A stretch of DNA of 64,000 bases from Callorhinchus milii (taxonomy: Eukaryota): assembly GCF_018977255.1 (NCBI RefSeq), contig NW_024704742.1:12340001-12404000 (forward strand), read 5' to 3'. The notes beneath the pieces were generated by a model. That model was not told the origin of the DNA. It saw only the letters and a list, made by a program, of their open reading frames with translations, and did not search any database. Below are positions 6,382-61,890 of the stretch, one piece after another. Made by a program: the position numbers and the translations under genes. The number at the start of each line of letters is the position of its first letter. Positions within the stretch are counted from its first letter, which is position 1.

Positions 6382-6639
6382 GGAGTATGTGGTTCTTTGC
6401 TGGATAGTCTCTCATTTTGTTTTCGACACCTTAATCAACTGCTCAGCATGTTTGGATCAATCACCTTTAATAGTTACTTTCATTCATAATTTTTTCTGTC
6501 ATTTATCCCATGCCACAGGATGCAAAGTAATAGAATTTAGTTGAAATCAAACACAAGGATAAATCGTTTTGCTCTGCATAATCAGTTTAACTGTACAGCT
6601 CTGTGCTGAACCAAAGCATAATTTCTGTTTCTTTTTCAG

Positions 6640-6697
6640 GATGATGATGTATCCGATGAGGGCATCGGCAGTGACAGTGGACCTAATGACCTTGCAG
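6640..6697 (+). CDS. ABCA1-like: ABCA1-like exon (58 nt): [19 protein letters not shown]
   Basis: ttttcag|GAT...GCAG|gtgagc; resembles ABCA1 SDAGLGSD; phase fits the next exon. Confidence 0.82.
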
Positions 6698-24600: not shown

Positions 24601-27600
24601 AAGGGACAGACTTTACAGAGTTAAAATATTCAGGCGTAGAACTGAGAAAGGAGCAGTGCTGGAGGACATTAAGACTCTCTAGAAATGCAGTCATTGAAAT
24701 TTGAGGGTCTGTATGACTTAACCTGTTCTTTTTGGTGCCTATGAAGGTCATAGTTGCTAAAGCAATTCACCAGTGGTTTGTTTCTGTCACTTGCAGAGGA
24801 TATCTTCGGCATCAACCAACGAATTATCTTAATCACTTGCATTCAAGAAGTGACTGTTGCCCTTGTTGACCGATCCCTTCTAATCAATCAATGTACTAAT
24901 AGTTTCTTTAAGAATGTCTATTTAAATCGCAAATCATTTTGCCTTTGGTCACCCGGTAACCTCTACAATAAAGCAAGCGATATTACCCGAGATTGGGAGC
25001 TGGCCATGCTTCCTCAAATCTCGATGTCTCTCTCTTTTCTCGTCCAAGACGTAGGGGTTTCCCAATATTCTTCTCGTCCCAGACGTAGAGGTTTATGATG
25101 TTCCTTCTTCTTCGATGTGGATATTACCTCGTCCCAGTCGCAGGGGTTATCCGATAGTTCGTCAGATCTGCAAGTCTGCTGATCAGTTGGTCTCCAGGGT
25201 CAATCTCCCGAACAAAGGACTCACAAAAGTTTTATAGTCCCAGATGACCTTTGATCACGTGACTCATTTGTTGACTCTGCAAGACCCTGCTCAATTCCAT
25301 ATTCGGAGTTGTTTTGTTCCTTTGCCCAAAACTGATCTGACCAATTTCGTCTGGGTTCTTCTGTTTGTTTCGTCTGGGTTCTTCTGTCTGTTTCGTCTGG
25401 GTTCTTCTGTCTGCTCGCCATGCACATTGTTCAATAGTAACCTTTTCTTCATTCTGCAACACCCTGTTTCGTGGGCCAATTGTTTTTAACTATGTAGAAC
25501 AACACTTATAGAAATGGTAACATTTTTAAACCATTCCTGACTTCACAAGGGTTAATCTTATTGTCAATCTTACCGCAAATATTTCTGGACCAGGTGTGCA
25601 GATATTTTGTGTTGTATAACAAAAGCTCTTGTATGTTTGTGTATAATTCCTAGGATTGGCATGACTTAAGTATTGATGTCCCAGAATTGGCGAAGGAAAA
25701 ATTAAGAGCCACTAAACATTAAAACATGAACATCTTCTATCTGGAATTATACTGACACTAAAATACCTTTCTCTTTCTCTCTCTCCCTGACTCTCTGGCT
25801 CTTTTATTCTTCCTCTAACATTTTTATCTCTCTTTCTTACTGTTTCATTCTCTCTGACTTTATTTTTCTCCATCTCTCTCTCTCACTCCCCATCTCTAAC
25901 AAATCACAAAATAGACTCACTTGCCTTGAGTTGCCAGTTCATTTAAATGTTTCACAGCATCACAGCTCCACTTTCCTTCTCGATCGGGCACCCATGTGGA
26001 TGGTTATTGTACAGATGCACATAATTCTATTGTAAATGCTGATTTCCAGCCAAAACTGAAATGTAAAGGAAACACCAGATTAGTTGCTACAACAACAACA
26101 ACTTGCATTTATATAACGCCTTTCATGCAGGATAGCGTCCCGGAGCGAATCACAGTGGCGCATTCTGACAATGGAGGGCACAAAGGTGAAACAGGATGCC
26201 CGAACCACCCAAGTGGAGGTAGTGGGTGGTGGAGTGGGGGGTAAGCAGATCGGCTAGGTAGTGAGGTGCTAGGGCATGAAGGGATTTGAAATCGAATGAG
26301 AGGATCTTGAAATCGATCCGTTCGGTGATTGGGAGCCAGTGGAGCCTGGCAAGTTGCTGAGTGCAATAAATACAGAGACTTGGAACCTATAAACTTCTTA
26401 GCAAGAAAACACTTGTTTTAGTAGGGAGGACACCCAAGTAGGGTGAATTAAATGAAAGGAGGAGCATTTGAAGGAGAACAAATAAGAAAAAACACAAATG
26501 GAACCAACTGGAATAGAGTTCTGTCTGAGGTAATAATGTATCTGCCAGTTCAATGAAACTTCCTATTTTCTTTGTTTTCATTGTGTTGTTTTTTGTCTAT
26601 TAACAGCAATGATGCCACTGAAAATGAACAAGTCGCACAAGTGGTTGACTCAATGGTGAACAATCCTGGATTTGGAACACGATGCATGAACAATGATCCA
26701 ATACCGTAAGCCTAATAATTAAATCATGTCTATGTAACTCCATTCCTTTGGAAGTCCCTTTGGAACTCCATCGCACATTCCCTTCACCTCGCCCCTCCTT
26801 GCCTCCTTCAAGGTGCGTCTCAAAACCCTCCTCTGTGACCACGCCTTGGGCCACCCTCCTAACCTCCCTTCCCTTTACCCTTTCCGATCCCGACACCCAG
26901 TTCGGGTCCAAATCCCTGACTGTCCTGCACCTTGGGACATTCTCTCAACGTGAAAGGCGCTATACGAATTCATACATTTGTAATGGATTGTATGTAAGAG
27001 TTCACCTGTGTATCTGTGATGTGCATATATAATTGAATATAATAACATATAATTGAAACAATATGCAACTAATTGAATCGGTGCAGCTGATAACCCGTAA
27101 ACAGAGTAAAAAGTACATTGTAGATCTATTCATACCAGACATGTTGCTAGAAAAATGCAAGGAGTGAAAACGATGTGTAAAAATGAACGTAACTGTACAC
27201 TCCAATGTATAAAGTGATGTTAACAAAATAGGAATCCACTGTGTTTAAAGTCATTGGAAATGCATCATCAGATAAAGTAAAAATGCCACCAACTGATGCA
27301 CGCTCTTTTAAATATGTTTGCCTAGGAAACTTCCCTGCATGAGCAATGATATGGCCTGGTACATCCCACCAGTACCACCATCTGTCAATGATACACTTAT
27401 GAATGGTAATTGGAGTATGGCAAATCCCTCCCCATCGTGTCAATGCAGCACTCCAGAGAAGATCATCATGTTGCCGGACTGCATCCCTGGTGCTGGAGGG
27501 CTGCCACCTATTGAGGTACAAGATCTATATTACACCTGCCTTTTTTGACTTTGGGTTGTTTCAATGTAGAATCTAAAAGATAATTGTTTCAACTGCAAAA

Positions 27601-39600: not shown

Positions 39601-42600
39601 TCAATATTGATGCTAAGAGCCATCATTTAACTGTGTTTATTTGCAGCGACTTCAAAACACAACAGATATATTACAGAACATGACAGGAAGAAACGTAACA
39701 GACTATCTTGTGAAAACATATGAAGAATTCTACAAAATAAGGTATGAAAATTGACATGAAAAGCACAGTGTTATTCTTGGAAACATTAAGATGAATAACC
39801 TGCTGAGTTGCTATACAAGTTGACATTGCTGCTTTCTTTTACCGTATGCTATTATTTTTTGTGTGAAGTTGTTGGATTACATTGTAATATGTAACTCAGG
39901 TGTGCTTCAGGATGACACCCAACTGTACCTCTTTGCCTCCACCCTTCACTCCAGGACCACTGCTGCCCTGACAGAATGTCTGTCAGACATCAAGTCCTGG
40001 ATGAGAGCTAACTTATTTCAGTTGAATGTCAACAAGACCGAGGCTCTCCTGATTGGCTCCCGTCAGCGCCTCCACACCTCAGGCGCTGACAGCATCACCA
40101 TCCATGGTTGCACATTCCACCTCACTGAGCCAGTCCGGAACCTTGGCATTGTGTTTGACACTCAACTATTCTTTCTACCTCACGTCCGTGCCATGACCCA
40201 CTCCTCCTTCCTCCACCTCCGCAACATCTCCCGGCTCCAGCACTGTCTCACACCATAGGCTGCCGAAATCCTAATGTACGCATTTGTTACATCAAGGCTT
40301 GACTATGCAAACTCCCTGTTTGTCGGCCTCCGCAACTCCTCCTTCCATAGGCTGCAAATCATTCAGAACTCTGCAGCCCGTGTCCTCTCCCGCACTAGGC
40401 TCCATGACTCTATCACCCCCATCCTCACCTGACTCCATGGCTTCCCATCACACGGAGAATACAGGCCACTGGCACTCTGCCCCCACCCTCTGAAACTCCA
40501 TCCTGCAGTCCCTCCGCCTCGCCCTCTCCCTTGCCTCCTTCAAGACCCATCTCAAGACCCTCCTCTTCAACCATGCTTTTGATCACCCAGCTTCCCCCCC
40601 TGCCCTCCACCCTCACTAATCCGAACCCAGCTCAGGTCCAAAACTCTGATTGTCCACTGCCTTGAGACATCCTCTTGATGTGAAAGGCGCTATACAAATG
40701 TAATTTTGTTGTTGTTGTTTCGGCCCTGAAGGTATGGAGGGATTTCAGTTGGGGAAGTGAACTCACAAGCTGAGATTAACAAAAGCATCATTGCTGCCAA
40801 CCTTCTGCAACTTTCAGAGATGTTTAATGTGTCTCAGGTAAAACATTTAAGTAAATATGTGTAAATATTGTGAAAGATTATATGAAATGTACTGTGACTG
40901 CAAAAAAGGATTCGGAAAAATAAGAAGAAAACAACACAAGTGTGGTATCATGTCGCCCGCAAAATATACAGTCAATTCACTTTACAGCATATTCTGTGAA
41001 GGGCTTTGAGACATTTAGAAGAAGTGAAAAGTGCTATACCAAATGCAAGGATTATTATATAACATGAAATAAAATCCCAACTGCTAGCCATCCACTGTAA
41101 ACCAATTAACTTCTCTTCAGGTAAACTACATGAGCACACGTGACAGTGTATCAAAGTATGTGACGCGGCTTCAAAACAGAAGCGGTGACATGGGCTCATT
41201 TGAGCTCATTGTCTGGGGTGACACTTCAATCATTACAACAACAACTTGCATTTATATAGTGCCTCTCACGCAGGTTACCGTCCTAGAGCTTGACATTGGC
41301 AGAGCACGATGGTGAGTTCATAGGCACAGTCGAATAGGAAGGTCTTCAGGCACGACTTGAAGATTGGGAAGAAAGGGTAAGGTGGAGGGATTGAGGAAGA
41401 GTGTTCCAGAGTTTCAGAGCTTAGTGGCTGAAAGCAGGCCCACCATGGTGGAACATAGGGCATGAGGACCATGCAGAAGGCCGGAACCAGTTGAGCAGAG
41501 GCAGTGGGTTGTGGGGTAAGCAGGTCGGAGAGGTAGAGAGGGCATGAAGGGATTTGAAAACATGTGTGAGGATCTCAAAATTGATCCATCTGGTGTGATG
41601 GAGGTATGGAGTTTAGTGCAGGTGAGTATGCGGGCGGCGGAGTTTTGGATCAGCTGGATCCTGTGCATGGTGGAGCTAGGGAGATTGGCCAAGAGGGCAT
41701 TAAACTTGAATTGCCAGTAGTGTCATCCTTCAGTTGAGACATTACCCGAGGACCTATTGCCTATTCCATGGATACAAAAGATCCCACAGCACTATTCGAA
41801 TAAAGAAGGAAGTCCCATCACGATGACCTGGTCAACAATCCTCCAGACAAACAAAAGTTAATCATTTACTCTGTGGCTGTTTGTGGGACATGGCTGCTTG
41901 CCATATCTGGCTGCAAATACATAACTGCTATACTTTACAGTAAATCCTGTGAAGTAATTTGAGGTATTTCCGTAACATGATAAGGCATTATGAAATGCAA
42001 GGAGTATTACTATTATTATCTTAGAACAAAGAAAGTTGTGGGCTCAAGCTCATGGTCCAGGCTGATGGAAGAGGTATTTCAAAACAGATTTTGACCTAGT
42101 TCCTTACTTAAGCAACATATTTATGGAGATAACAATTTTGACTCCTGATTCATATTCAATTTTTTTTCATGGCATAGCATGCATAACATTTTTATTTTAT
42201 ATGCTCTTTATTTATTTTTTATGCACATTTTTATTAATGGCTCTGAGGAGAATGACCAGTGAAGACAATTCACTAGCAGTCAGTATGGCCAGACTGTAGA
42301 GATGTCTAAAATCAGGCAGGTAGAGTTGCTATCAGACACTGATTGTGACTGCAGTACATACATGATAATTAAGCAGCATCCCATCCAGTTTAATAATAAT
42401 GGTGAAGCTGTCCAGTTGTATTGGGAGGTGACTTAAGGCAGAAGGGATTAGATGAACTGATTAATTATTCTTCTAGTGCTCAGTCAATGTTCTCAACATT
42501 TTAAGTAAATCAGAATTAGACAGCAATACTCTAACTAGAAATGAATGTGATGTTGTTTAGCAGTGCTTTATTGTGCAGATTGGAGGAGGAAATTCTCCTC

Positions 42601-45600
42601 ACTTTCAGTTATTTCCCTCCAACCTGGTTCCAAACAAGGTCTGAAGCAGAGAGGGCTGAGGGTTATGCTTCCAGCTGAGCATTAGAAGAAAGACTTTGCC
42701 AAGACATTCATCAATGGCAGAAGATTGAAAAGGAGAGTGAAATGAAGAAGGCCCTTTGGCTCATATTTAATGAATCTCATATCTTAGCCTCAACTAAACC
42801 TCTTGGTAACCCATTCTTTTCCAGCACTTTATTATCCTCTGTGAAAGGAAATGCTTCCTCGTATATATCCGAGACATACCCTTTACATTTCAAACTTGTT
42901 TCCTCTCTTTCGGTATCCTTTTTGTATCTGAAAGTATTTTCAGGACACTCTGTCAGGTGACTGAGGATTCCGAAGGATAGGAGTCTGACTCTCGTAATGT
43001 TTCTAGTCTCCCTGTGATAAAGGAATAATAATAGTAATAATAATCCTTGCATTTGATATAGTGCCTTATCACATCTTCTAGATGTCTCAAAATGCTTCAC
43101 AGAATAAATGTAAAATGAATTGACTTGACTGTACATTTTGTGGGTGGAATGCAACAAACACAACAACAAAATTATATTTATATAGCGCCTTTCACGTCCG
43201 GGAGGACGTCCCAAGTTGCTGGACCGACAGAGTTTCGGACCCGAGCTGAGGGTCGGAGTGGGAGAGGGGGAGGGCAGGGGGTAAGTAAGGAGGTCGAAAG
43301 CACGGTTGAAGAGGAGAATCTTGAGGTGGGTCTTGAAGGTGGTGAGGGAGGGGGTGAGACAGAGGGACTGTGGGATGGAGTTCCAGAGGGTGGGTGCAGA
43401 GTGGCAAAAAGCCCACTATCAGCGGGCAAGCAAGTCGGAGCACGTGAAGTAGGCCAGAGCCCACTGAGCGGAGGGAGCAAACAGGATGGTAGGGGGTTAG
43501 GAGGTCGGAGAGATAGGGGGGAGCAAGACCATGGAGGGCTTTGAAGGTGAGGACCAGGATTTTGAACTGTATCCTCTGTGTGATGGGAAGCCAGTGGAGT
43601 TGGACAAGGATGGGGCTGATAGGGTCGCAGAGCCTATTGGAGGAGAGGACACGGGCTGCAGAGTTCTGGATGATTTACAGCCTGTGGAGGGAAGATTTGG
43701 GAAGGCCGACAAGCAGTGAATTTGCATAGTCAAGCCTCGATGTAATGAAAGCGTGCATGAGGGTTTTGGCGGCCTGTGGTGTGAGACAGTGTCGGAGCCG
43801 GGCGACGTTGCAGAGGTGGGGAAGGCAGAAGCATGATTGTTGGGTAGAAAGGATAGTTGAGGGTCGAACAAGACCCCAAGGTTCCGGACTGGCTTAGTAA
43901 GGTGGAGTTTGCAACCATGGATGGTGATGCTGTCAGCGCCTGAGGTGAGGAGGCATTGACGGGAGCCAATCAGGAGAGCCTCGGTCTTGTTGACATTCAA
44001 CTGAAGAAAGTTAGTTCTCATCCAGGACTTGATGTCTGACTGATGTCAGCACAGCTGTGGTCCTGGAGTCAAGGGTGTAGGCAGAGAGGTAGAGTTGGGT
44101 GTCATCCGCACACATGTGGAAGTTGACCCCATGTCTGCGGATGATGGCACCAAGAGGGAGCATGTAGATATTGAAGAGGAGGGGACCAAGGACAGAGCCC
44201 TGAGGAACGCCGCACGAGACTGTCCGGGGGCTACAGGAGAAACCGTTTGAGGAGATGAAGTGTGAGAGGTTCGATCTGAACCAATAAAGGACAACGCTAT
44301 AGAGGCTGAGGTGAGAGCAGAAGCGATGGATGAGGATAGAGTGGTCGACAGTGTTGAAAGCAGGAGAGAGGTCAACGAGGACGAGGAGGCAGAGGGAGCC
44401 CTGGTTGCAGATGAACAGAATGTCATTTGTCACTTTGACCAGGGTGGTTTCTGTGCTGTGGGCAGCACGGAAGCCCGAATGGAGGGGTTCAAGAAGGGAG
44501 TGGCAGGAGAGGAAGGAGCGAAGCTGAGAAGCAACAAATGCAGCAACCAATTTTGCACATCAGTGTCCCACAAACAGGCGTGGATTGAGTGACTAATTTT
44601 TTTTGTCCTTGCATTCGACGTAAGAGCCTTATCATGTTGTTGAGATGTCTTAAAGCACTTCACAGGATTTTACTTTTAAAGTGTGGTGACTGCATATTTT
44701 GGAGGTAAACACAGCAGCCAATTTGCACACAGCAATGTCCCACAAATAGCCATAAGTCTGGAAATACATAATTACAACACTTGACAGTAAATCCTGTGTA
44801 TCTCTTTAAGTGCTCCAAGCTGTGACCCCGGTATAAATGCAAGTTGGTGTTGTGAAGTGAATGAAAGGGAGTCACGGCAGTCACAGCAATCTCCCAACAT
44901 GCAAAGCACTATACCAATTAGAAGGATTATTATTATTTATTATTTGTGCTCTGGGACACTACCCCGCGTGAAGGGCTCTATACAAATGCAAGTTGTTGTT
45001 GTGTTAGGTGGAAACCTAGAACTGTTATTATTAGGTGGAAATCTAGGGGCAAACGGTTTTGAAAAATAGTTGTTATAAAATTTTACTGACAAGTTGCAAA
45101 ATGCCATTATTTTTTCAGAGTGACAAAAAACTTCTTCAAAATGCTGAAATTCTGATGGAAAAACTTGTTGTAAAGGACAATGTAAAGGTAGGAAGAGTCT
45201 GAATGTCTGAGGTGTTTCAAAGCAACAATAAGGTACTGCTGGATAAGTGGCATCAACTCCATACCAAGAGATCATGGAAGAGATCCATACCAAGAGATCA
45301 CCCCTGCGTAGGATTGGGGTGGTGGGGGGGAGAAAATGTCAGGTCTCATAATTATCGTCAGGAGGATGGAGGAGAAACCGAAAACTCAGACTGTCCCACC
45401 CTAAGCGCTTTGAGACATCTCAAAGACTTAATAAAGTGCTATATCAAATGCAAAGATTATTGTATATATTATCCTTCTGGCTGGAGGTTAACCCATGCCA
45501 GATAGCAGACTCGAAAAGAAAAGAGAAAACAGAGTGTATCAATGCAAAGATCCAGTTATATTCTTTTAATGGAAAACTATGGGAGCAGAAGGTTGGGGAA

Positions 45601-48600
45601 AGTGTATCCGGACAGGATGACTCTTGCTTTCCCATTCTTTTCAATCTGTGCAGAAAATATAATGCCACAAACTTCCTTCATGTAGAAAATACTTCACTCA
45701 CTTTTATATTTTAAAAAAACTACCAATGAATTTACGCCAAAAAAAATCATAAATGATGTATATGACTTCAGTTCTGGGAGAAAACTGAAATACTGGAAAT
45801 CCACAATAAGATCAGCATACCAAAAGAAAATCAGAGCATTATCCATCATAAATGGGCATCAATATTTTCTTCTATTATCACTGGACTCTGTCCTTGTGCT
45901 TGATTTGTACAATAACTTTATGATAGTCAAATAATTCTCAAATTGGGCTAACAATATCAGACATATTATTTCATGTCAGACCTAGTGAATGAAGCATTGC
46001 ATATTTACAGAGTGCAAATAATGTACAGCACAGAAAAAGGCCACAAAACCCAACCAGTCTATGTCAGTAGTTATATCCCACAAGAGTCTTCACCCATTCC
46101 TTACTCCCTCTCATATTTGATTGCTCCAGGACGCTACCCTGCGTGAAGGCTCTATATAAATGCAATTTGTTGATCGCGCTTGCCCTCTTCTTTCACACAG
46201 TTGTAGAGTGAAGTGAAGGTTCAATACCTTTAATACTAAACTATTTTTATCACATAGATTTTGCACTCATTTGTATGGAGCCAATTATTTACAACACTCA
46301 ACAATTAACATCATCTGAGTACTTTAATAATACTAATAATCCTTGCATTTGATATAGCATTTTTCACATCTTCCAGATGCCTCAAAGCGCTTCACAGAAT
46401 ATACTGTAAAGCAAATTGACTGTATATTTGTGGGTGAAGCATGGCAGACAATTGCACACAGCAGTGTCCCACAGTTCTTTTGATATTGTAATTCCAGAAT
46501 ACCAATCTTACCCTTGTTTTCTTACATGAGCCCAATGTCCTGACATACACTACTACTAATAGTATTAGGAATAATAGTAATCGTTACATTAGGTATAGCA
46601 CCTTTCATGTCGGGAGGATATCCCAAAGCGCGCCCCAAAGCGCTTCACAAGGTATACCATAAAGTCAGTGACTGTTTTGTGGGGAAAGCAAATCTTCCTG
46701 ATGACCTTTCGCCCACAAAATACACATTTTACTACACTTTACAGTATATTCTGTAAAACACTTTGAGACGTCTCAACAACGTGATAAGGCACTATGTCAC
46801 TATGCAAGGAGTATTATTAGCAGTATTATTTATTACTTGTTCCATATATTGAGCCCCTCTTTAAAGAAGCGCTGCTAGTATTTGTCTGAAAATTGCTCCT
46901 TCACGTACTGCCACCTGACAATAAATCCAATCTTTTGCTTAAAAACTGCTGAATGGTACTTCTGAAATTTCAAGGGATATCCAACTACTCTTTTGCAAAA
47001 TATATCAAAGTTGGTAGCTGTTGTCCATTTATCTTCGTGCTTTATTCTCACTTCTAACATATAAAATCGTTTATTCAGAAAATCCTTACATCACAGTAAT
47101 ATGTCATATTTTTCCCATTAGCAATTAGTCTGTAATAGCCCCAGTGACAAGTCTTTCGGGGTATATTGTTTCCCTATTCTGCTCCAGGTTTGGTTTTATA
47201 ACAAAGGATGGCACGCAATGGTTTCATTCATTAATGTGGCAAGCAATGCAATTCTCCGTGGCAATTTACAGCCTGGCAAAGATCCGAGAGATTACGGCAT
47301 CACTACCTACAACCATCCTTTGAATCTGACAAAGGTGCAGCTGACTGACGCAACTTTGTGAGTACAAATTGCAAATAATTATCATTACACCTGCAGAGCA
47401 AATGGGATTTGTTAACAGGTTACGTTAGTGCCATCTTGAGGCTGAAATCTGCCATCAACTTATTTCAGTTTTCGATCCCGGCAGCCTTGATTCGCACTAA
47501 AGTCTGCTTTACGCGAGTAATATTTCTGATTTTCTCTCTGTACATTTTAAAATATATATATTTCTTGCTATTATAGCACTATATTGCCTCCCAAGTAATC
47601 AAAAACATAGTATGGTCTGAATCCATCTAAGTTACAATTAATGATTCGGTGCATGACAAATTCAGCATGTGCCTGCTGATTCTTTCCAACAGTGCATTGA
47701 ATTTTGTCCAGCAGTTAATGTCTGTTTAACAAATGCTTTAGAACTAAACTGGATGGTGATCTGCATAATGAAATCTACATTGAAAATAATTAGACTGTTT
47801 TAAAGGAATATTATCCTGCTCCTTAATTAAACAGTCCATTACCTGGGTCTGAGTAAAAGATCATACTACTTGTGGGTCTGGGTGATTAGAAGATCACAAA
47901 AAAGGTTTGGACCCCCTCTCTCTCCCACTCTGCCTTCAAACCTGAAGCTGTGGGAAGCTCTTTGAGATATCTTCCCAATGGAATGACGTTTTATGAAAGT
48001 GAAATTAGTTATTGAATTCTTCAAAGTATTGATTCTACCCTACAAGCCAAAGCCTGAATGGGTAGGATGGTCCGAGCTGGACAAGTAATGGAAAAGCTTG
48101 ACGGACATTGCTTTCAATGGCAAGCTATGGGGCTTTAATTGGTAAAACTCCAGCGGTTACCCCCAGTGCACATTCCAGGTCCTTGAGCCTTGGCTGTTGA
48201 CAGTGTGTGCCTAATACTCCCCGGAATTAGGTTAACCGGATTTGTCAAATTTTCACATACAAGCGGGATGCATATAATTCTGTTTGTTTTGGATACTCTT
48301 AAGCACGATGATGGGTTTCTGTATGTGTCAAACATCCAGCCGAGCAAACAAAAAGAATCCAGTTTGATTTTATGACACTAGCTTTGTCATGTTATGAATT
48401 GTTGTTTTGTTGAATTGATTTGAATATAACTTTTCTCGTGTGTATTTCTTCTTTCTTTATCCAGTTCTACCACTTCTGCAGATGTTGTGGTTTCCATCTG
48501 TGTTATATTCGCGATGTCGTTTATTCCTGCCAGCTTTGTGCTCTTCCTGATCCAGGAGCGTGTCTCTAAAGCCAAGCACCTGCAGCTTGTCAGTGGTGTC

Positions 48601-51600
48601 AACCCTACAATTTATTGGATTGCCAATTTTGCCTGGGATATGGTAAGATATGTTCATATACTGTAGCAATTTTAAACTCCACAAAACAAATTGTAGATGA
48701 ATAGAAAAAATATCAAATTATTTTCCGACTAAACAAGATTATCCAAATATTGATTCACTGTGAAGTACTTCTTTAACTATATTCTTGAGGGTGTAATCAA
48801 CTTTGTTATCAAACTTTTTGTGGAGTCCTGTAGCTCAGTGGTTAGAGCACTCGCTTTGCAAGCAAGAGACCTGGGTTCAATTTTCGGCAGGGTGAAATCT
48901 TGGGTAAGTTTCCTTACTCCACACGCCTAATAATAATCCCTCAAAAAAAAAGTTTGTGGGACACTGCTGTGCGCAATTGGCTGCCACATTTCACCCACAA
49001 ATATACAGTCAATTCACTTTACAGTATATTCTGTGAAGCACTTTGAGACGTCTGGAAGACGTGAAAAGCACTATATCAAATGCAAGGATTATTATTAGTA
49101 GTATTATTTTTGTAATCTTTGGGGGATTATATCATACACCTTGCTTTTTATTATTTGCATTTTGTAAGAATCAATATTACTGCATAACAAATCAACATAA
49201 ATGTCCAGGCTAGATTACGCCAACTCTCTGCCCATCAGACTACCAGCCTCTTCCCTTCACAAATTGCAGAATATCCAGAGCTCTGCAGCTTGTGTCCTTT
49301 CCCGCAACAGGCTCTGCGTGCCTATCACACCCATCCACACCAGGCTGCACTGGCTCCCAATCCCTCAGTGGATCGTGTTCATGAACATTATCCTAACTGC
49401 TAAATCACTCCCATGGTCTTGCCATCCTACCAACCTGTCCCTCCCTCCACTCAATTCATTGTAACATTTGCTTAATTTACATCATTATTTTGAGTGCACA
49501 TAAGCCTAGATGTTATGTTAAATACAGGCATTAATTGTACAGTGTACAGTTGATTGGAATTTAGTAGATTTGGCTAAAGTGCTAAGAAGGAAAATTGAGA
49601 CCACATAAAATGCCCAAAACAAGTTCTAGGAAGTGTGCAGTGTTGCGAATACGATAACGTGCCTCTCTTTTGATGTCAAGACTTTCAACCCACACTATAG
49701 AGCATAATGCAGATTTCTGAAAGTTATGACAAATGGTTTATAGGTATTACAAGTTTCCCTCAGAAGCGTCTTTGGCAAACGTAACTTTTTAATGAATATT
49801 AAAACCACCCCTGAGGGTGTTGTGTAAATCGGGTACAATTGTAAATTCCAATTTATCGCTTTTGCTGCTGGATTTAGTGAATTTAAATTTTCTTTACTGT
49901 TATTCATAGATTCATAGATTCATAGAATGTTATGGCACAGAAGGAGGCCATTCGGCCCATCAAATCTGTGCCGGCTCTTTGACAGAGCAAGTCACTTTCA
50001 CTAACCCCAATCACCAGCTTTCGCCCCATAACCCTGCAAACACGTCTTCCCCAGATACCTATCCAGTTCTCTCTTAAAAGCTGTTATCGAATCGGACTTC
50101 ACTGCCCTTTCGGGCATATAATTCCAAATTCCAACAACTCGCTGAGTGAAAAAAATTCTTCTAACCTCCCCTCTGCTTCTTTTGGTAGATATTTTAAGAC
50201 TGTGACCGCGGGTCACAGACATACCTACCAGCGGAAACAGCTTTTCGCTATCTATCCTGTCGAAACCTTTCATGATCTTGAAGACCTCTATCAGGTCCCC
50301 ACGTAACCTTCTCGGCTCCAATGGGAAAAGTCCTAACTTCTCCAGCCTGTCCTCATAGCTAAGGATCCCCATTCCTGATATCATTCTCGTGAATCTCCTC
50401 TGCACCCTTTCCAGTGCCTTAATATCCTTCCTGAAGTAAGGTGCCCAGAACTGAACGCAACAACAACAACAACAAGATTCCATTTATAGAGCACCTTTCA
50501 CGTCGGGAGGACGTCCCAAGGCGCTGTAAAGTTGGGTCAGGACCCAAGCAGGGGGAAGTGGTCAGGGTGAGGTGAGGGAAGGGAGGGGACGAGGAGGGGG
50601 GAAATGGTCAGGGTGAGGGGAGGGAGGGAGCGAGGAGGGGGTAGGGAGTCGAGAGGGGAGCTGAAGGCACGGTCAAAAAGAAAGGTCTTGAGACCGGCCT
50701 TGAAGGAGGAAAGGGAGGAGGCGGCGAAGGCACTGGGGGATAGAGTTCCAGAGCCTAGGGCCTGAGAGGCTGAAGGCCGGGCCACCGATGGTAGGGCGGT
50801 TGGGGCGGGGGATGTGGAGCAGACCGGAGCCAGAGGAACGGAGGGTACGGGCAGGTAGGTCGGGGGATAGTAGGTTGGAGAGGTAGGAGGGTGCAAGGCC
50901 GTGAATGGCCTTGTAGGTGAGATGAGGATCTTGAAATAGATCCTCTGGGGGATGGGGAGCCAGTGGAGGCGAGCGAGGGTGGGAGTGATGTGGTCGCGAA
51001 GTCTGATGCGGGACAGTACACGAGCTGCAGAGTTCTGAATGACCTGCAGCTTGTGGAGGGAGGTGCCGGGAAGGCCGGCGAGGAGAGAGTTCCCATAGTC
51101 CAGCCTTGAGGTGATAAAGGCGTCGACCAGGGTTTCAGCAGCGTGAGGGGTGAGGTAGTGCCGTAGTCTGGCGACATTCCGGAGGTAATGGAAGGCGGTG
51201 CCAGTTGTGGCGCAGATATGAGGGAGAAAGGACAGCTCAGGGTCGAACAGAACCCCGAGGTTCCTGACTGGCTTTGAGAGGTGGAGAGTGCAGCCTTGGA
51301 TGCTGATGGTGTCAGCGCCTGAGGTGCGGAGGCCCTGACGCGAGCTAATCAGGAGGGCCTCAGTTTTACGCACGTTGAGCTGAAGAAAGTTGTCTCTCGT
51401 CCAGGACTCGATGTCGGACAGGCAGCTGTCAGGACATCGGTGGTCGTGGAGTTGAGGGTAGAGGAGGAAAGGTAGAGTTGGGTGTCATCCGCATACATGT
51501 GGAAGTTAACCCCATGTCTGCGGATGATGTCACCACAGGGGGAGCGTATAGAGGGTGAAGAGGAGGGGACCGAGGACAGAGCCTTGAGGGACACCGCACA

Positions 51601-57600: not shown

Positions 57601-60600
57601 GTATCAATGGAAGTATATGATACAAGTTGTACTTAACAATATGTAAGAAGGTATTGGAGATACCCCTAATGATGTAATTATAAAGTACTGGAAAGGATTG
57701 CTTGTTGATTGCAGAATTCAACAAATTCTTTTCTTTGGTTTTAATTATGTATTAGATAGTTCAGAACTACTGCAATGTGTGTGTATTTGGAGGGATGGGG
57801 GAAACAAGAGCCCTGGAGATACTAATCTTAACACAAGTCCATCATTTCAATCTTCTCATTGTATTAAATGAGATTATATGTTCTTGGGAAAACAATTATG
57901 GTTACAAATTTAACTTTTTGCATAATTCATGCATTATTTTCTCCCACTTGAAATGTATTGATTTATTAACGGTAATGTATTTGAGTCCAAAGAGATGTCT
58001 TTCTTATTTATGTTTATAAATAGTTGTTTTAAAATACTTCCCTTATCAGGCATATGGAATCCTCTCTTGGCTTTGTTTGTATATTTCTGGTTGCTCAAAA
58101 TGAAGAGGAATTTTCCTACAAACTCTTAAAGCTTGCAGTTAATCTTGGATGTAAAATTGTTTATGTACTATTTGTGCTCATTCAACCAATGTTTTGACGA
58201 GTGATGGTTATTTGGATTGGTAGATTTTTATATAAATATATTAAAACTGTTTACTCCTACAGTGCAACTACGCTGTTTCGTGTGTCATGGTTGTGGTCAT
58301 CTTCTTATGTTTTCAACAAAAATCCTACGTATCATCTGCCAACCTCCCAGTGCTGATCCTTCTCTTTGTGCTCTATGGGTGAGTCAAATAAATCAGTACA
58401 GTACTCAATTGTTGACTGTCACACTTTGTTGAAATGAAAATAGTGTCTTCACATTGGAAGGATGTCTCAAATTGCTCCACAGGAATTATTGTAAAATGTC
58501 GTAGCTGTATATTTTGTAGGCAAACACAGCAGCCAATTTGTGCACAGCAATATCTCACAAACAGCCATAAAGTAAAATTTGGGGGATGGTTGACTAGGAA
58601 ACCGGAAGAAACTCCCTTTTCTTTTCAGATAGTAACATAGGATGTTTAACGTCCATCCGAACAACCAGACAGGACTTTGGGGTCTCATTTGAAAGATGGC
58701 AACTCTATTATGCAGCATATCCCAGCACTATCCTAGAATGTCAGCTTAGACTGTGAGTTCAAAGTCCCGAGGTGTAGCTTGAATCCACATACATCTGACT
58801 CAGAAGCGAGAGTGTGAGCAACTGAGCCAGATTGACACTTAAAAATGAGTGTGAAGTAGAAAGTAAACAGTCCGAATTAATCTGAACTAGACGTCCATTT
58901 AATATAAAACATATAAAGTTCTTAAACATTCATCTCACATATGCTCCCTGGGTGCTATTATCTTAAACTTGTATAATAAAGTAATATTAATAATAATCCA
59001 AACATTTGATTTAGCACCTTATCAAGTCATTGAAAAGTCTGAAACCACTTTACAGAATATACTGTACAGAATATACTTTACAGAATATACTGTAAAGTGA
59101 ATTATATTTATAGTTCTCTTTATTTATGATAATTTATGTATTATTTATTTGGTGTCCTGACTCACAATGCCCCAGAATGCCACTTCATGGCTGTTTATTT
59201 ATATTTATTTATAATATTTATAGTTAAACAATAAAACCATTGCAGCTACTTCAAAGTATTATGGCGTTTTCCTTCCAGTTATCCTTGCTTTTTACCCTTT
59301 CACCATCCTAAATTTGAAGGATGCTATAAATGCAAGTTGTTGTTGTTGTGTCATGTCAAGAGGATGTCTCAAACACTTCATAACATTTACTGTAAAGTGG
59401 AGTGACTGTGTGTTTGTGGATAAAGGCGGCAATCAATTTGTACACAGGAATTTGACGGCAAACTGCTAAGGAGAGAATGGCTTACTTTATTTGGGAGATT
59501 GTTGGACAGGACACTGGGAGAATTTAGGATGTGTTGGAGCTTGTGGGTAGTAGAACTGGGAGAAGCCAGCAAGGAGAGATCTGGAGAAGTCCAATGTGGT
59601 GGTGATGAAGCCAAGGATTTCAGCAATGTTGGAAATGAATTAGCAGCGGAGGCGGGTGAGGAGAAACAGTCATGATCAGAGATCAGATGCAAGGAAGGAG
59701 AATTTATGGTTAAATAAAACACCAAGAATGTGGAAAACAACAACTTGCTTTTATATAATGCCCTTCACGCCAGACGGCATGTCAGAACGCTTGAAAACAG
59801 CCAGAAGGGTTGAGTCACTCAGCCAGAGGAGAATAACGGTGGCAGTGGAAGGAGCCGAGAAGGACAGCTTCTGTTTTGTCCAGCCACATGTAACCTCAAG
59901 GTGACACACTAGTTCTTCATAAACACAGCAGTGTACAGATGTTACCAAAAGCAGCTCAAATGGAAACATTATCCATCATAGGTTAGTCCAAACAGCTCTG
60001 CTGAGTTGTTTATTTGATCGTCTGTAGCAGTAAGCACAATCTCCATGGCTCACCCATCACTCACCATCTACATCACTTCTCAAGACCTATAATTCATATA
60101 TTTGCTGTGTTAGAACCACAGAAAGTTTACCACACAGACAGAGGCCATTTGACTCCTAGTGGCTGTACTCGTGCTGTGTTCTTCACCAGAATGATTGACT
60201 CTATGGTGTTTTGCCCACAGAATACATTCAACACTGTGAAGTGCTTTGACACATCTCAACAACGTGACAAAGCAGGTTGAAATGTGCTTAGATTGAATTT
60301 ACAGAACATTCCAATCGGTATCTCATCTGTCTGTTTGAAAAGGAAATTGCTTTTGTGCATTTCAGCTACAATGCTGTGACTTCATTAGAACTGGCTGAAA
60401 GTACCAGATCACTGGCCTGTTTCCATACTACACATTCTTTGTAAATCTTTGTAAATGCAACTAATGAGATGTTGCAGTGTGTATTATGGGGTTTGATGGA
60501 CTGAAGACCAGAGTTTACTTAAACATGCCAGTTCATAGATGCATTTATATTATATTTATATTATTTCATAGTATTTCAGGCTATTTTTTGGCTGTTTATC

Positions 60601-61890
60601 TTTTTCTTAATTTGTAGTATAATAACTTAATAAGTATAAGGTATCAGCCTCAAGTCAAGTACAAGCAGAATCTGAGCAGAAAACTTCCTGTACTCTGACT
60701 CAGTGCATTATAATTCCAACTTCAGAAAACCATTCCCCACTGAATTCTTTTTTTGAAATTTTCACACCGAGTATACCTGTGGCCTTTCTGGATGAGATTA
60801 CAAATTTAAGGTTGAATCTTCCACTATTCTAACCACTGTGTGCCCACTAACAAACATAGCTCCGTCCAGTGTGAAGGGCGTTATATCAATGCAAGTTGTT
60901 GTTGTGGTAGCCCTAAAGAGATCTCAGAATACCAAGGTATAGTTTGTTCTACTATCCTAACACCATACCAAAATCCAATTCATAACTGGCCAACATTTCT
61001 GCAAAGTAAACATTGTTTTCTCCATGGAATACCATCAGAGAGAGCAGCAAAATTTTGGAAGCTGAAATTGCCTAAAGTTATTTGTTTTCCTCATATTTGT
61101 TACAGCACCTTTCAATGTTGGGAAGACGTGTCAAATGTGTCACAGGATTTACTGTGAATGCAGAATGACTGAAAGCTCAACCATGAATGGGGGGTGGGGT
61201 AGGGAGGTGTATGGGAGGAAAGGACACAGATCGGGAGGGTGCAGAAAGTAGCAGAGATAGCATAACCAATGAGGATGGGGGTGATAGGCTCATGAAACCG
61301 GGTGAGGGAAAGGACATGAGCTGCAAAGTAGATACTCTGATAATAGATACTCTGCAGCTGTGAACTGCAGGTCATTTGAATACTTTTGCCTGAACTTGAT
61401 GAAGATGTGAATTTGATCTCGGCAACTCAGGTGAGAGGTTGTGGCAGAGGGTAGCGATTATGGGGAGTTATTGACTTGTGAGTCAATAAAGAAGCCCGCT
61501 ATAACTGTAATGTATTGCATTTTAGTTTGTTGTATTGTGTCCAGAGTCAAAATGTGATCAATGCACCTTGATAATTATTGTGCAGTTATGTAACAAGTTG
61601 TCTTGAAATTGATTCTTCCAGTTGTGCTTTTAAAAGCATCTCTGATGCATGAAGCAGAAATAAGACAATTTTGTTTTGCTTTTTGGTGTCAGTGGCAGAG
61701 GAACGCACTTCTTTAACGTGTCTCTCCATGTTTTATCTCTTTCAGATGGTCAATCATTCCTTTAATGTACCTAGCATCTTTCCTATTCAGTATACCCAGC
61801 ACAGCGTACGTGGTGCTGACCTGCATTAACATGTTCATCGGCATTAATGGCAGTATCGCCACCTTTGTGCTTGAGATCTTCGAGAATGAC
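6640..61890 (+). CDS. ABCA1-like: ABCA-subfamily ABC lipid transporter, ABCA1-like (partial gene; 15 exons in window, continues beyond both ends)
   Basis: 15 exons with canonical AG/GT ends and compatible phases join into one open frame. Motifs include [55 protein letters not shown] and [10 protein letters not shown]. Exon sizes 203/49/99/190/95/106/170/178/116/145 match human ABCA1 as I recall them. Exact orthology is not established. Confidence 0.93.
7918..8010 (-). mobile_element. CR1-type 3' end fragment (different family)
   Basis: caggagtaggccattcggcccttcgagcctg...atcatggctgatc, a CR1-type tail. Confidence 0.65.
8082..8284 (+). CDS. ABCA1-like: ABCA1-like exon (203 nt): [33 protein letters not shown]...[12 protein letters not shown]
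   Basis: tttcag|GT...GAG|gtattc; regulatory domain R1 motif; lies within ORF 8042..8299. Confidence 0.97.
8421..8749 (-). mobile_element. Composite SINE, young short subfamily (inserted in an L2 fragment spanning 8330-9070)
   Basis: Reverse complement nearly identical to 3129-3446. Confidence 0.93.
9707..9755 (+). CDS. ABCA1-like: ABCA1-like exon (49 nt): [16 protein letters not shown]
   Basis: taacag|ATT...CCAG|gtatga; matches ABCA1 IFLKVAEESGVD. Confidence 0.95.
9852..10166 (-). mobile_element. Composite SINE, long subfamily
   Basis: Contains the extra ctgtttacccagcagtaagtaggaacccgg segment. Confidence 0.85.
11130..11936. mobile_element. Two fragments of a second L2 family in opposite orientation (minus ~11130-11308, plus ~11312-11936)
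   Basis: [20 protein letters not shown] on plus; both outer ends carry the taccctgcgtg/gcaagttgtt-type tail. Confidence 0.8.
12647..12757 (+). CDS. ABCA1-like: ABCA1-like exon (111 nt): [37 protein letters not shown]
   Basis: Pyrimidine tract + taatag|GA...ACTG|gtatgg; open frame, phase 1-1, similar size to the ABCA1 114-nt linker exon; sequence poorly conserved. Confidence 0.7.
15507..15652 (+). CDS. ABCA1-like: ABCA1-like exon (146 nt): [48 protein letters not shown]
   Basis: ttatag|AT...CAG|gtattc; matches ABCA1 GKGSYQVKGW...ARRSRKGFFAQ. Confidence 0.95.
17918..18217 (+). mobile_element. Composite SINE, long subfamily
   Basis: tRNA head + ctgtttacctaacagttagtaggaaccc + Deu-like tail. 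Confidence 0.85.
18287..18414 (+). CDS. ABCA1-like: ABCA1-like exon (128 nt), TM7: [42 protein letters not shown]
   Basis: cttcag|GTT...TCAG|gtatga; lies within ORF 18254..18568. Confidence 0.97.
19755..19900 (+). mobile_element. CR1 3' end fragment
   Basis: caaggctatagagaaagagcggggagt...gggccaaatggcttcctgtgttgt...ctatga. Confidence 0.75.
20981..24584 (-). mobile_element. Full-length L2-clade LINE, copy 1 (~3.6 kb, single APE-RT ORF, no ORF1)
   Basis: APE motifs ([25 protein letters not shown]) and RT motifs ([41 protein letters not shown]); (TTG)n tail; GC-rich 5' UTR; probable TSD AAGAAA at 20975-20980 and 24585-24590. Confidence 0.95.
21083..24296 (-). pseudogene. Frameshifted endonuclease-reverse transcriptase ORF of L2 copy 1
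   Basis: Split over ORFs 23235..24305, 23024..23248, 21831..22826, 21004..21855 and 21083..21265. Confidence 0.9.
24750..25505 (-). mobile_element. Possible solo LTR or unclassified insertion
   Basis: CpG-containing non-LINE segment with tandem repeats, E-box CACGTG at 25256-25261 and minus-strand TATAAAA at 25230-25236; boundaries uncertain. Confidence 0.35.
25345..25413 (+). repeat. 3 x 23-bp tandem repeat (tttcgtctgggttcttctgt[t/c]tg)
   Basis: Directly visible; one mismatch among the units. Confidence 0.92.
26088..26350 (-). mobile_element. L2 3' fragment (second family)
   Basis: caacaacttgcatttatataacgcc tail; gggagccagtggagcctgg. Confidence 0.72.
26607..26705 (+). CDS. ABCA1-like: ABCA1-like exon (99 nt): [33 protein letters not shown]
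   Basis: taacag|C...ACC|gtaagc; PGFGTRCM motif. Confidence 0.96.
27326..27515 (+). CDS. ABCA1-like: ABCA1-like exon (190 nt), ECD2: KLPCMSND...[31 protein letters not shown]
   Basis: cctag|G...GAG|gtacaa; conserved ECD2 cysteines. Confidence 0.97.
28215..28450 (-). mobile_element. Composite SINE 3' half
   Basis: Deu-like body and tail on the minus strand, directly before the plus copy at 28476. Confidence 0.82.
28476..28800 (+). mobile_element. Composite SINE, young short subfamily
   Basis: Nearly identical to 3129-3446. Confidence 0.93.
29706..29886. repeat. Second copy of the palindromic repeat
   Basis: aaatactgcagatgctggaaatctgaaataaaaac; gggaacactcag...caggcagcatctatggaga pairs with tctccatagatctgcctga...ctgagtgttccc. 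Confidence 0.8.
30330..30653 (-). mobile_element. Composite SINE, young short subfamily
   Basis: Nearly identical to 8421-8749. Confidence 0.93.
31069..31430 (-). mobile_element. L2 3' fragment
   Basis: HGLAPPYL...LWNSIPQSL...[10 protein letters not shown]. Confidence 0.8.
32740..33098 (-). mobile_element. Composite SINE, long subfamily
   Basis: Same structure on the minus strand; head partly deleted. Confidence 0.85.
33236..33630 (-). mobile_element. Older Deu-domain SINE, degenerate
   Basis: Weak similarity to 55611-55998 and 58430-58840. Confidence 0.6.
33725..34090 (-). mobile_element. CR1 LINE 3' fragment
   Basis: [15 protein letters not shown]...[13 protein letters not shown]...FKRELDR plus CR1 3' UTR. 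Confidence 0.88.
36203..36290 (+). repeat. AT-rich minisatellite (atgatattat)n
   Basis: About four clean 10-mers followed by degenerate copies. Confidence 0.88.
37163..37960 (+). mobile_element. Older Deu-domain SINE split by a young L2 3' fragment
   Basis: Head gctcagttttagcgctattg resumes at 37610; Deu core gaggtgctgtccttcagatgagatatt. Confidence 0.72.
37187..37604 (+). mobile_element. Young L2 3' fragment (same family as the full-length copies)
   Basis: Near identical to the reverse complement of 20981-21305; (TTG)n tail; probable TSD TATTG at 37182-37186 and 37605-37609. Confidence 0.9.
38975..39240 (+). mobile_element. Composite SINE, long subfamily
   Basis: ggagtcctgtagctcagtgg head and long central segment. 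Confidence 0.85.
39647..39741 (+). CDS. ABCA1-like: ABCA1-like exon (95 nt): [32 protein letters not shown]
   Basis: ttgcag|CGA...AAG|gtatga; matches ABCA1 [21 protein letters not shown]. Confidence 0.96.
39911..40719 (+). mobile_element. L2 3' fragment (older related subfamily) ending ~12 nt before an exon acceptor
   Basis: DDTQLYL...[22 protein letters not shown]; (TTG)n tail ending ~40719. Confidence 0.9.
40732..40837 (+). CDS. ABCA1-like: ABCA1-like exon (106 nt): [35 protein letters not shown]
   Basis: ctgaag|G TAT GGA...CAG|gtaaaa; YGG motif; size 106. Confidence 0.93.
41234..41700 (-). mobile_element. L2 3' fragment (second family)
   Basis: [10 protein letters not shown]; caacaacttgcatttatatag tail. 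Confidence 0.78.
41710..42018 (+). mobile_element. Older Deu-domain SINE fragment
   Basis: gagacattacccgaggacc...aaagatcccacagcactattcgaa and tail. Confidence 0.72.
43154..44536 (-). mobile_element. 5'-truncated L2 nested in a SINE (SINE parts 43024-43153 and 44537-44600)
   Basis: RT motifs in ORFs 44011..44550 and 43497..44021; probable TSD AATGCA at 43148-43153 and 44537-44542. Confidence 0.9.
45119..45187 (+). CDS. ABCA1-like: ABCA1-like exon (69 nt): [23 protein letters not shown]
   Basis: tttttcag|AGT...AAG|gtagga; ends in DNVK (ABCA1 NNVK) before the VWF exon; phase 0-0. Confidence 0.88.
47188..47357 (+). CDS. ABCA1-like: ABCA1-like exon (170 nt): [27 protein letters not shown]...[14 protein letters not shown]
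   Basis: ctccag|GTT...TT|gtgagt; hallmark ABCA motifs. Confidence 0.98.
48465..48642 (+). CDS. ABCA1-like: ABCA1-like exon (178 nt): [59 protein letters not shown]
   Basis: atccag|T...ATG|gtaaga; TMD2 motifs. Confidence 0.98.
48822..49108 (+). mobile_element. Composite SINE, short subfamily with older tail
   Basis: Same head and internal deletion; tail gagacgtctggaagacgtg. Confidence 0.9.
49905..50459 (-). mobile_element. CR1 LINE 3' part (interrupted by L2 copy 2)
   Basis: [49 protein letters not shown]; (CTATGAAT)n-type tail. Confidence 0.92.
50460..54152 (-). mobile_element. Full-length L2-clade LINE, copy 2 (~3.7 kb), nested in a CR1
   Basis: Highly similar to copy 1 along its whole length; TSD TGAACGCA at 50452-50459 and 54153-54160; (TTG)n tail. 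Confidence 0.96.
50537..53843 (-). pseudogene. Frameshifted endonuclease-reverse transcriptase ORF of L2 copy 2
   Basis: ORFs 52170..53984 (APE), 51530..52018 and 51349..51801 (RT, YADD), 50537..51373 (C-terminus). Confidence 0.9.
54153..54490 (-). mobile_element. CR1 LINE, continuation upstream of the L2 insertion
   Basis: QRDLGVQV...[30 protein letters not shown] joins VQFWAPY across the TSD. Confidence 0.9.
54693..55033 (+). mobile_element. Composite SINE, long subfamily (degenerate head)
   Basis: ggcaagtttccttacaccacatgcctctgtttacctagcagtaagtaggaacc and tail. Confidence 0.82.
55611..55998 (-). mobile_element. Older Deu-domain SINE
   Basis: tRNA-like head (ctcagttggtagcattctcttctctgagtcagaag on minus) plus Deu body. 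Confidence 0.75.
56618..57131 (-). mobile_element. L2 3' fragment
   Basis: Similar to the 3' end of the full-length L2. Confidence 0.85.
58263..58378 (+). CDS. ABCA1-like: ABCA1-like exon (116 nt): [39 protein letters not shown]
   Basis: cctacag|TGC...GG|gtgagt; FQQKSYVSS as in ABCA1. Confidence 0.97.
58430..58840 (-). mobile_element. Older Deu-domain SINE
   Basis: Head ggctcagttgctcacactctcgcttctgagtcaga on minus plus Deu body. Confidence 0.75.
61746..61890 (+). CDS. ABCA1-like: ABCA1-like exon (145 nt): [48 protein letters not shown]
   Basis: tttcag|A...GAC|gtatgt; IPSTAYVVL motif. Confidence 0.97.

Follow-up and report, generated by a model that had tools for sequence, protein, structure and literature searches.

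A gene named ABCA1 in Callorhinchus milii probably represents an old, separate member of the ABCA1/4/7 group that lacks the 33-nt exon

The locus and its gene

The window (the whole stretch analysed, 64,000 nucleotides, C1:12340001-12404000 of the 991.5-Mb Callorhinchus milii assembly) contains the middle portion of a gene that covers about C1:12.27-12.46 Mb. This gene is termed X here and is named ABCA1 or ABCA1-like in the databases. Its coding sequence runs directly across the position at which ABCA1, ABCA4 and ABCA7 carry a 33-nt exon (the microexon). The whole of the evidence is best explained, with a probability of roughly 0.85, if X is a fourth member of the ABCA1/4/7 group, an old and separate gene from which the microexon is absent.

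In a protein search a single exon of the window matched C. milii 'ABCA1-like' proteins at 93-98% identity, and most exons of these models are 100% identical to the window. The RefSeq protein P0240 (2134 aa) could be mapped letter for letter, and this mapping requires the junction 39741 to 40732 and no other. The exon sizes obtained in this way were 203, 49, 111, 146, 128, 99, 190, 95, 106, 69 and 116 nt, including the separate 111- and 146-nt exons that the original prediction had reported. The exons, the intron at the junction and the repeat within it are as follows (window coordinates).

6637..6697, + strand: exon, 5′ boundary left unfixed (P0240 and model mapping)
8082..8284, + strand: 203-nt exon after the first nucleotide-binding domain (NBD1); best solved relative human ABCA1, E 6e-24 (P0240 mapping)
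9707..9755, + strand: 49-nt exon (P0240 mapping)
12647..12757, + strand: 111-nt exon (P0240 mapping)
15507..15652, + strand: 146-nt exon (P0240 mapping)
18287..18414, + strand: 128-nt exon (P0240 mapping)
26607..26705, + strand: 99-nt exon (P0240 mapping)
27326..27515, + strand: 190-nt exon (PSCQCS...GAGGLPP), upstream of the junction, which served as a probe for paralogues (P0240 and model mapping)
39647..39741, + strand: 95-nt exon; its last two bases, AG, open a split Arg codon (exact P0240 mapping)
39742..40731, + strand: GT..AG intron of 990 bp at the site of the ABCA1/4/7 33-nt exon, with no such exon or remnant (sequence, exon search)
39910..40720, + strand: 3′ fragment of a long interspersed nuclear element (LINE), 811 bp, sense, degenerate with stop codons, its (TTG)n tail 11 bases before the acceptor (25 other window matches)
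40732..40837, + strand: 106-nt exon; its first base, G, closes the split Arg codon (exact P0240 mapping)
45119..45187, + strand: 69-nt exon in the RefSeq model, 45116-45190 in an Ensembl-derived model (P0240 and model mapping)
47188..47357, + strand: exon (WFYNKGWH...), 3′ boundary left unfixed (P0240 and model mapping)
48478..48642, + strand: exon, 5′ boundary left unfixed (P0240 and model mapping)
58263..58378, + strand: 116-nt exon (P0240 mapping)
61746..61890, + strand: exon, 3′ boundary left unfixed (P0240 and model mapping)

A Pfam search of P0240 returned two ABC_tran domains, two ABC2_membrane_3 domains and R1_ABCA1, the ABCA1-type R1 regulatory domain, and a Walker A motif was present in each half of the protein (GHNGAGKT and GINGAGKT). 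We infer from the sequence that X is a working ATP-driven lipid transporter, because both Walker A motifs, the two ABC and two membrane domains and R1 are present and branches within its clade are short. A pseudogene was considered and rejected on the strength of the intact gene model and domains. Eight Ensembl-derived isoforms of X (P0002-P0009, UniRef, C. milii) are highly unlike, some of them extending into introns; P0004 runs on beyond 40837, up to 40861, and three isoforms are without the whole RYGG region.

A direct junction across a 990-bp intron

The 95-nt exon is flanked by an acceptor AG at 39645-39646 and a donor GT at 39742-39743, and the 106-nt exon by an acceptor AG at 40730-40731 and a GT from 40838. 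The two are joined in frame, with the codon AG|G (Arg) spanning the junction and leading into RYGG. Splice sites, frame and the exact mapping of P0240 therefore all support the in-frame splice originally proposed. The intron had been divided by eye into about 810 bp of repeat and about 170 bp of other sequence, a division that was upheld: beside the 811-bp LINE fragment, masking of the repeat by self-similarity of the window left 168 + 11 bases (179) of unique sequence. In translation the LINE fragment carries DDTQLY in frame and weakly matches the end of the RVT_1 profile (E 0.0077, below the Pfam cut-off). There is no N anywhere in the window, so the intron is without a gap, an eventuality for which the original prediction had allowed. 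A search for tandem repeats found none of relevance.

A total of 65 in-frame AG...GT/GC pieces (9-147 nt) were found in the intron, none of which resembled the microexon peptide of any paralogue. Three of these pieces are 33 nt long (39769-39801, 40557-40589 and 40667-40699). The second and third lie within the LINE fragment and the first has a GC donor and a poor acceptor. When the 33-nt exons of the three paralogues described below were slid along the intron, the best agreement was 17/33 bases, and 30 shuffles gave best values of 15-20. Extending this comparison to the studied intron and both of its neighbours gave best values of 17-20/33, again within the shuffled range. Because no candidate in the intron resembles the paralogue exon and all matches stay within the range of shuffled sequence, we conclude from the genomic letters that the 33-nt exon is absent from the DNA of X itself and is not merely skipped or unannotated. 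The earlier failure to find a matching microexon here by reading alone is thus borne out.

The piece at 40667-40699 is preceded by AG and followed by GT; it lies in the LINE's tail and could serve as a cryptic exon, albeit one unlike the paralogue microexon. Elsewhere in the window, two 3.7-kb copies of a G-rich element with strong GC skew, 92.9% identical, lie at 20979-24583 and 50459-54151. These copies account for the peaks in composition at 20-24 kb and at 50-54 kb, and they have a part in common with the intronic LINE fragment, in opposite orientation.

Three paralogues with the microexon in the same genome

Paralogues were located in the C. milii genome with flanking exons of X, the 190-nt upstream exon among them. 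Three further loci were found, at C1:79.98 Mb, C5:18.95 Mb and C21:1.46 Mb. In all three the exons that match the 95- and 106-nt ones are separated by a 33-nt exon with pyrimidine tract, AG and GT; the encoded peptides are SLKNKLWVNEFR, SMKSKYWVNEQR (ABCA4) and SLKSKKWVNEFR. The insert has the consensus S-[LM]-K-x-K-x-W-V-N-E-x and consists of 11 residues, from a phase-2 exon, where the second extracellular domain begins.

The ABCA1-type locus (C1:79.96-80.00 Mb) has an SLC44 gene (SLC44A1-like) at 79.83 Mb and a paralemmin (PALM2-like) at 81.1-81.2 Mb; the ABCA4-type locus on C5 is accompanied by SLC44 at 19.13 Mb, calponin at 19.146 Mb and paralemmin at 19.8 Mb (SLC44A3-, CNN3- and PALMD-like); and the ABCA7-type locus on C21 by calponin at 1.535 Mb and paralemmin at 4.4 Mb. 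Synteny and trees together identify the three paralogues as ABCA1, ABCA4 and ABCA7. The human gene orders behind these block labels follow in part the portions consulted of a paper on paralemmins (PMC3405040). The genome therefore does contain a separate canonical ABCA1, with its microexon, a point that the original prediction had singled out for checking, and X is a different locus from all three of these paralogues.

The presence of the 33-nt exon in ABCA1, ABCA4 and ABCA7, stated in the original prediction, is seen directly in these loci and is matched by human structures. Aligned with a 67-residue piece of X, the human chains have exactly 11 extra residues: 56 chain residues against 45 query residues for ABCA1 (5XJY) and 77 against 66 for ABCA4 (7LKP). 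ABCA1 (human 5XJY/7TBW) is like X in having full-size ABCA architecture and in how its exons are laid out (190, 95, 106, 116 nt and others), at 52-58% identity. However, X lies 67 Mb from ABCA1 in C. milii, with neither SLC44A1 nor PALM2 beside it, falls in a clade of its own and is without the 11 residues. ABCA4 (human 7LKP; C. milii C5) shares GGIS[VI]G after the junction with X, and one analysis pairs X with ABCA4 and lamprey; it differs in having the microexon and SLC44A3-, CNN3- and PALMD-like neighbours, and the pairing is unstable. The RefSeq name of P0240 is 'phospholipid-transporting ATPase ABCA1', whereas synteny and trees place the true ABCA1 orthologue at C1:79.96-80.00 Mb. Many orthologues of X in other species bear an equally misleading ABCA1 name.

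Family searches of the genome gave no choline-transporter or paralemmin match near X (C1:12.3 Mb). A fourth duplicated block was found on C29 (1.96-3.48 Mb): RAD23 lies at 1.96 Mb, SLC44 at 3.38 Mb and calponin at 3.446 Mb, followed by a weak paralemmin match at 3.478 Mb. No ABCA match fell in this block among the 24 that were scored. ABCA1, ABCA4 and ABCA7 thus lie in one each of the four synteny blocks of the two rounds of genome duplication (2R) and X in none of them, including the expected fourth block, SLC44A2/CNN1/PALM3/RAD23A, where it does not lie in C. milii. This location is compatible with an older, unlinked duplicate as well as with a relocated fourth copy.

Distribution and phylogeny of X

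The second extracellular domain, used as a query, had 2837 matches, and the distribution and junction counts that follow rest on the best 120 of these. The nearest match outside C. milii was coelacanth (73% identity), and eel, tarpon, bowfin, gar, caecilians, salamanders, frogs, lungfish and many teleosts followed at 65-71%. Orthologues of X therefore occur in coelacanth, lungfish, amphibians and ray-finned fishes. No amniote, shark or ray was among these 120, which suggests, but does not prove, that X was lost from amniotes and from sharks and rays. A recent, C. milii-specific copy of ABCA1 was also considered and is ruled out by the bony-vertebrate orthologues.

The direct junction was present in 95 of the 100 new ids (80 by a read-through pattern, 15 by eye). 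The other five comprise three in which the patterns did not locate the junction, one sturgeon chimera of ABCA1 type and one gar isoform with an unrelated 14-residue insert. The clade shares the junction motif KT[YF]...[KR]-R-[YF]GG[IL]SVG, with which X agrees. In the gar isoform (P0264, Lepisosteus oculatus, UniRef) the 14 residues sit exactly at the junction; the RefSeq gar models are direct.

Three trees were built: one with FastTree (46 rows) and two with IQ-TREE under posterior mean site frequencies (PMSF), of which the quick analysis used 32 rows and 1814 columns and the careful one 28 rows and 872 columns. X formed its own clade in all three, with a support of 100 in the Shimodaira-Hasegawa-like approximate likelihood ratio test (SH-aLRT) on 1814 columns and of 100/100 on 872 columns. 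Ray-finned fishes made up a single group inside this clade in both IQ-TREE analyses. The C. milii sequence was unresolved at the clade's base on 1814 columns and grouped with coelacanth, weakly (74/81), on 872. ABCA1 formed a clade of its own that includes the gene at C1:80 Mb (100), with X apart from it, and ABCA1 was strongly joined to ABCA7 (100 on 1814 columns, 100/97 on 872). A vertebrate ABCA1/4/7 clade that includes X and excludes the tunicate, echinoderm and mollusc homologues was also recovered (100; 98/96). The position of X within the group was unresolved in the 1814-column tree, and on 872 columns X stood with lamprey+(ABCA1,ABCA7) at 89/82. The original description of X as a divergent paralogue that lost or never gained the microexon, and not as the ABCA1 orthologue, agrees with these trees.

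The older state of the junction

The insert was found in 5/150 representatives, all of ABCA1/4/7 type. It was absent from Ciona savignyi, a sea urchin, two molluscs, a sea spider, a damselfly, a crinoid ABCA2-like sequence, fish ABCA2, fish ABCA12 and the lamprey gene P0086. ABCA2, ABCA12 and invertebrate ABCA1-like proteins run directly into the RYG region, as does X; for ABCA2 and ABCA12 this had been stated in the original prediction and was now seen in the fish sequences. In lamprey, P0086 (Lampetra fluviatilis) and P0102 (Petromyzon marinus) are predicted to read ...KTYAGFIEK-RYGG and are like X in having none of the 11 residues. They are unlike X in reading GGFSLG, not GGISVG, and their place in the trees shifts between ABCA4 and ABCA1/7. 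The lamprey gene, ABCA1-like at NCBI, is named ABCA4 and given as expressed in eye and intestine in the parts seen of PMC4458048.

Because the invertebrate homologues, ABCA2, ABCA12 and one lamprey gene are without the insert, the insert-less form looks ancestral. The 11 residues were probably gained once, in early vertebrates, since the inserts of the three paralogues are too alike for independent origin. The term 'ancestral-type' in the original prediction consequently stands for the state of the junction; as a statement of history it is unproven, as the trees do not settle loss against a microexon never gained. In two canonical ABCA1 models, P0059 from Myripristis (abca1a) and P0241 from Acipenser ruthenus, the 11 residues are skipped with the frame kept (KTYAQIIGK-RYGGFSLG), which represents either real alternative splicing of the microexon or an annotation miss.

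Lost, never gained or overlooked

Gene predictors often overlook microexons, and the intron of X does offer three in-frame 33-nt AG..GT/GC candidates. It is nevertheless very improbable that X has a microexon which escaped notice, be it because the exon is cryptic or tissue-specific or through a fault of the assembly. All three candidates are unlike the paralogue peptide, two being part of the LINE and the third having poor splice sites; the window has no N; and 95 of 100 orthologue models from many pipelines are direct, although the same pipelines find the exon in ABCA1, ABCA4 and ABCA7. Given that the exon is absent, we put about even odds on its having been lost from X against its never having been there. 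Loss would follow if X is the fourth 2R copy and sister to ABCA4, as PALM3 pairs with PALMD, a history to which we give a little less than an even chance. The microexon would then have disappeared before the chimaera/bony-vertebrate split, either deleted or, being frame-neutral, permanently skipped, and X would have moved off its block. In approximately unbiased (AU) tests (LG+F+G4), the best likelihood on 1814 columns joins X with ABCA4+lamprey (AU 0.87; bootstrap proportion by resampling of estimated log-likelihoods, bp-RELL, 0.73), and X with ABCA1/7 is given 0.0497. X and ABCA4 have GGIS[VI]G after the junction in common, where ABCA1/7 have GGFSLG, and a search with the C. milii ABCA4 exon had X proteins among its best matches. 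The C29 block, with SLC44, calponin, a weak paralemmin and RAD23, is without an ABCA match; no ABCA paralogue stands beside PALM3 in the parts seen of PMC3405040; and the in-frame skipping in P0059 and P0241 illustrates exon skipping in annotated ABCA1 models. On the other hand, X lies at C1:12.3 Mb, outside all four blocks, its intron holds no remnant of the exon, and a further loss, or an annotation miss, is required in lamprey. Moreover, X is not paired with ABCA4 on 872 columns, where X+ABCA4 arrangements score 0.05-0.06 and X with lamprey+(ABCA1,ABCA7) 0.89.

Alternatively, X may never have had the microexon. Its lineage would then have left the ABCA1/4/7 stem in early vertebrates, ahead of the insert and perhaps in company with lamprey P0086, and its second extracellular domain would have stayed in the ancestral form. 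For the insert this history is the most economical, with one gain and zero losses, and it accords with the outgroups and the lamprey gene, all without the insert, and with a position of X off the four 2R blocks when ABCA1, ABCA4 and ABCA7 occupy one each. The AU tests leave room for X outside ABCA1/4/7 (0.34 on 1814 columns, 0.24 on 872) and for X+lamprey outside (0.28 on 872, 0.063 on 1814). It is, however, not the best tree in any analysis, it requires an additional pre-2R duplication and the loss of the other copies of X, and only 0 to 2 polarised characters join ABCA1/4/7 against X. We therefore regard it as tentative, although a real possibility, that X, perhaps with the lamprey gene, is sister to ABCA1+ABCA4+ABCA7, diverged in the vertebrate stem ahead of the 33-nt exon and was lost in amniotes.

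Several points weigh against our overall view of X as an old fourth member. The RefSeq and Ensembl models are predictions, so that the junction is known from genome sequence and predicted proteins, and the lamprey model, also predicted, may simply miss a microexon. The absence from amniotes and elasmobranchs is that seen in the best 120 matches. In the trees, the rows of the three C. milii paralogues were stitched from tblastn pieces and ABCA4 was thinly sampled (4-5 rows only). The placement of X depends on the alignment, the 1814- and 872-column results contradicting each other and neither rejecting X outside ABCA1/4/7. Polarised amino-acid characters were of little help: none was informative under strict settings, and the few found under looser ones conflicted.

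Relation to published genes

Genes that may belong to the X clade have been in print for some time. The catfish inventory (PMC3655950) reports an 'ABCA1-like' gene of 2230 aa that was assigned to a 'separate clade' and, in the parts seen, counts it as a catfish duplication. In marine medaka an 'ABCA1-like' gene of 2073 aa is likewise treated, in the parts seen of PMC4607974, as an extra, medaka-specific copy of abca1. As far as these parts of the fish papers of 2013 and 2015 go, the 'ABCA1-like' gene was thus known and taken as teleost-specific. Judging from the name, the size and the wording 'separate clade', and not from sequences, the catfish and medaka genes probably belong to the same family as X; teleost proteins of the X clade bear the same 'ABCA1-like' database name. 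What differs is the age, since the papers, in the parts seen, describe a species-specific copy of abca1 whereas X dates to the chimaera/bony-vertebrate split. No paper was found that describes the X clade as pan-gnathostome or notes the missing microexon, in a search that left subscription journals and supplements outside its range.

Already known, therefore, are the gene as an annotated entry under a misleading name and its teleost 'ABCA1-like' forms in print. New are the deep age of X, its apparent absence from amniotes among the best 120 of 2837 matches and the microexon as a diagnostic difference.

Significance

Tangier disease, Stargardt disease and an Alzheimer risk locus trace to the human genes ABCA1, ABCA4 and ABCA7. 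This family is usually described as having three members, one copy having been 'lost' following the genome duplications. A fourth member conserved in non-amniote jawed vertebrates alters this three-member account, as a refinement of a known family and not as a new kind of system. X is also a warning on database names, given that RefSeq calls it ABCA1. Furthermore, X provides a natural experiment on the 11-residue segment of the second extracellular domain, with one fold that occurs in both forms, insert present and insert absent. Any role of the insert in lipid hand-off or folding would be revealed by a comparison of X with ABCA1 or ABCA4, or by a swap of the segment. Should X have separated before the insert arose, the microexon would be a datable vertebrate invention marking the ABCA1/4/7 stem, and X would show, in living chimaeras, ray-finned fishes, coelacanth, lungfish and amphibians, what the second extracellular domain was like before the insert.

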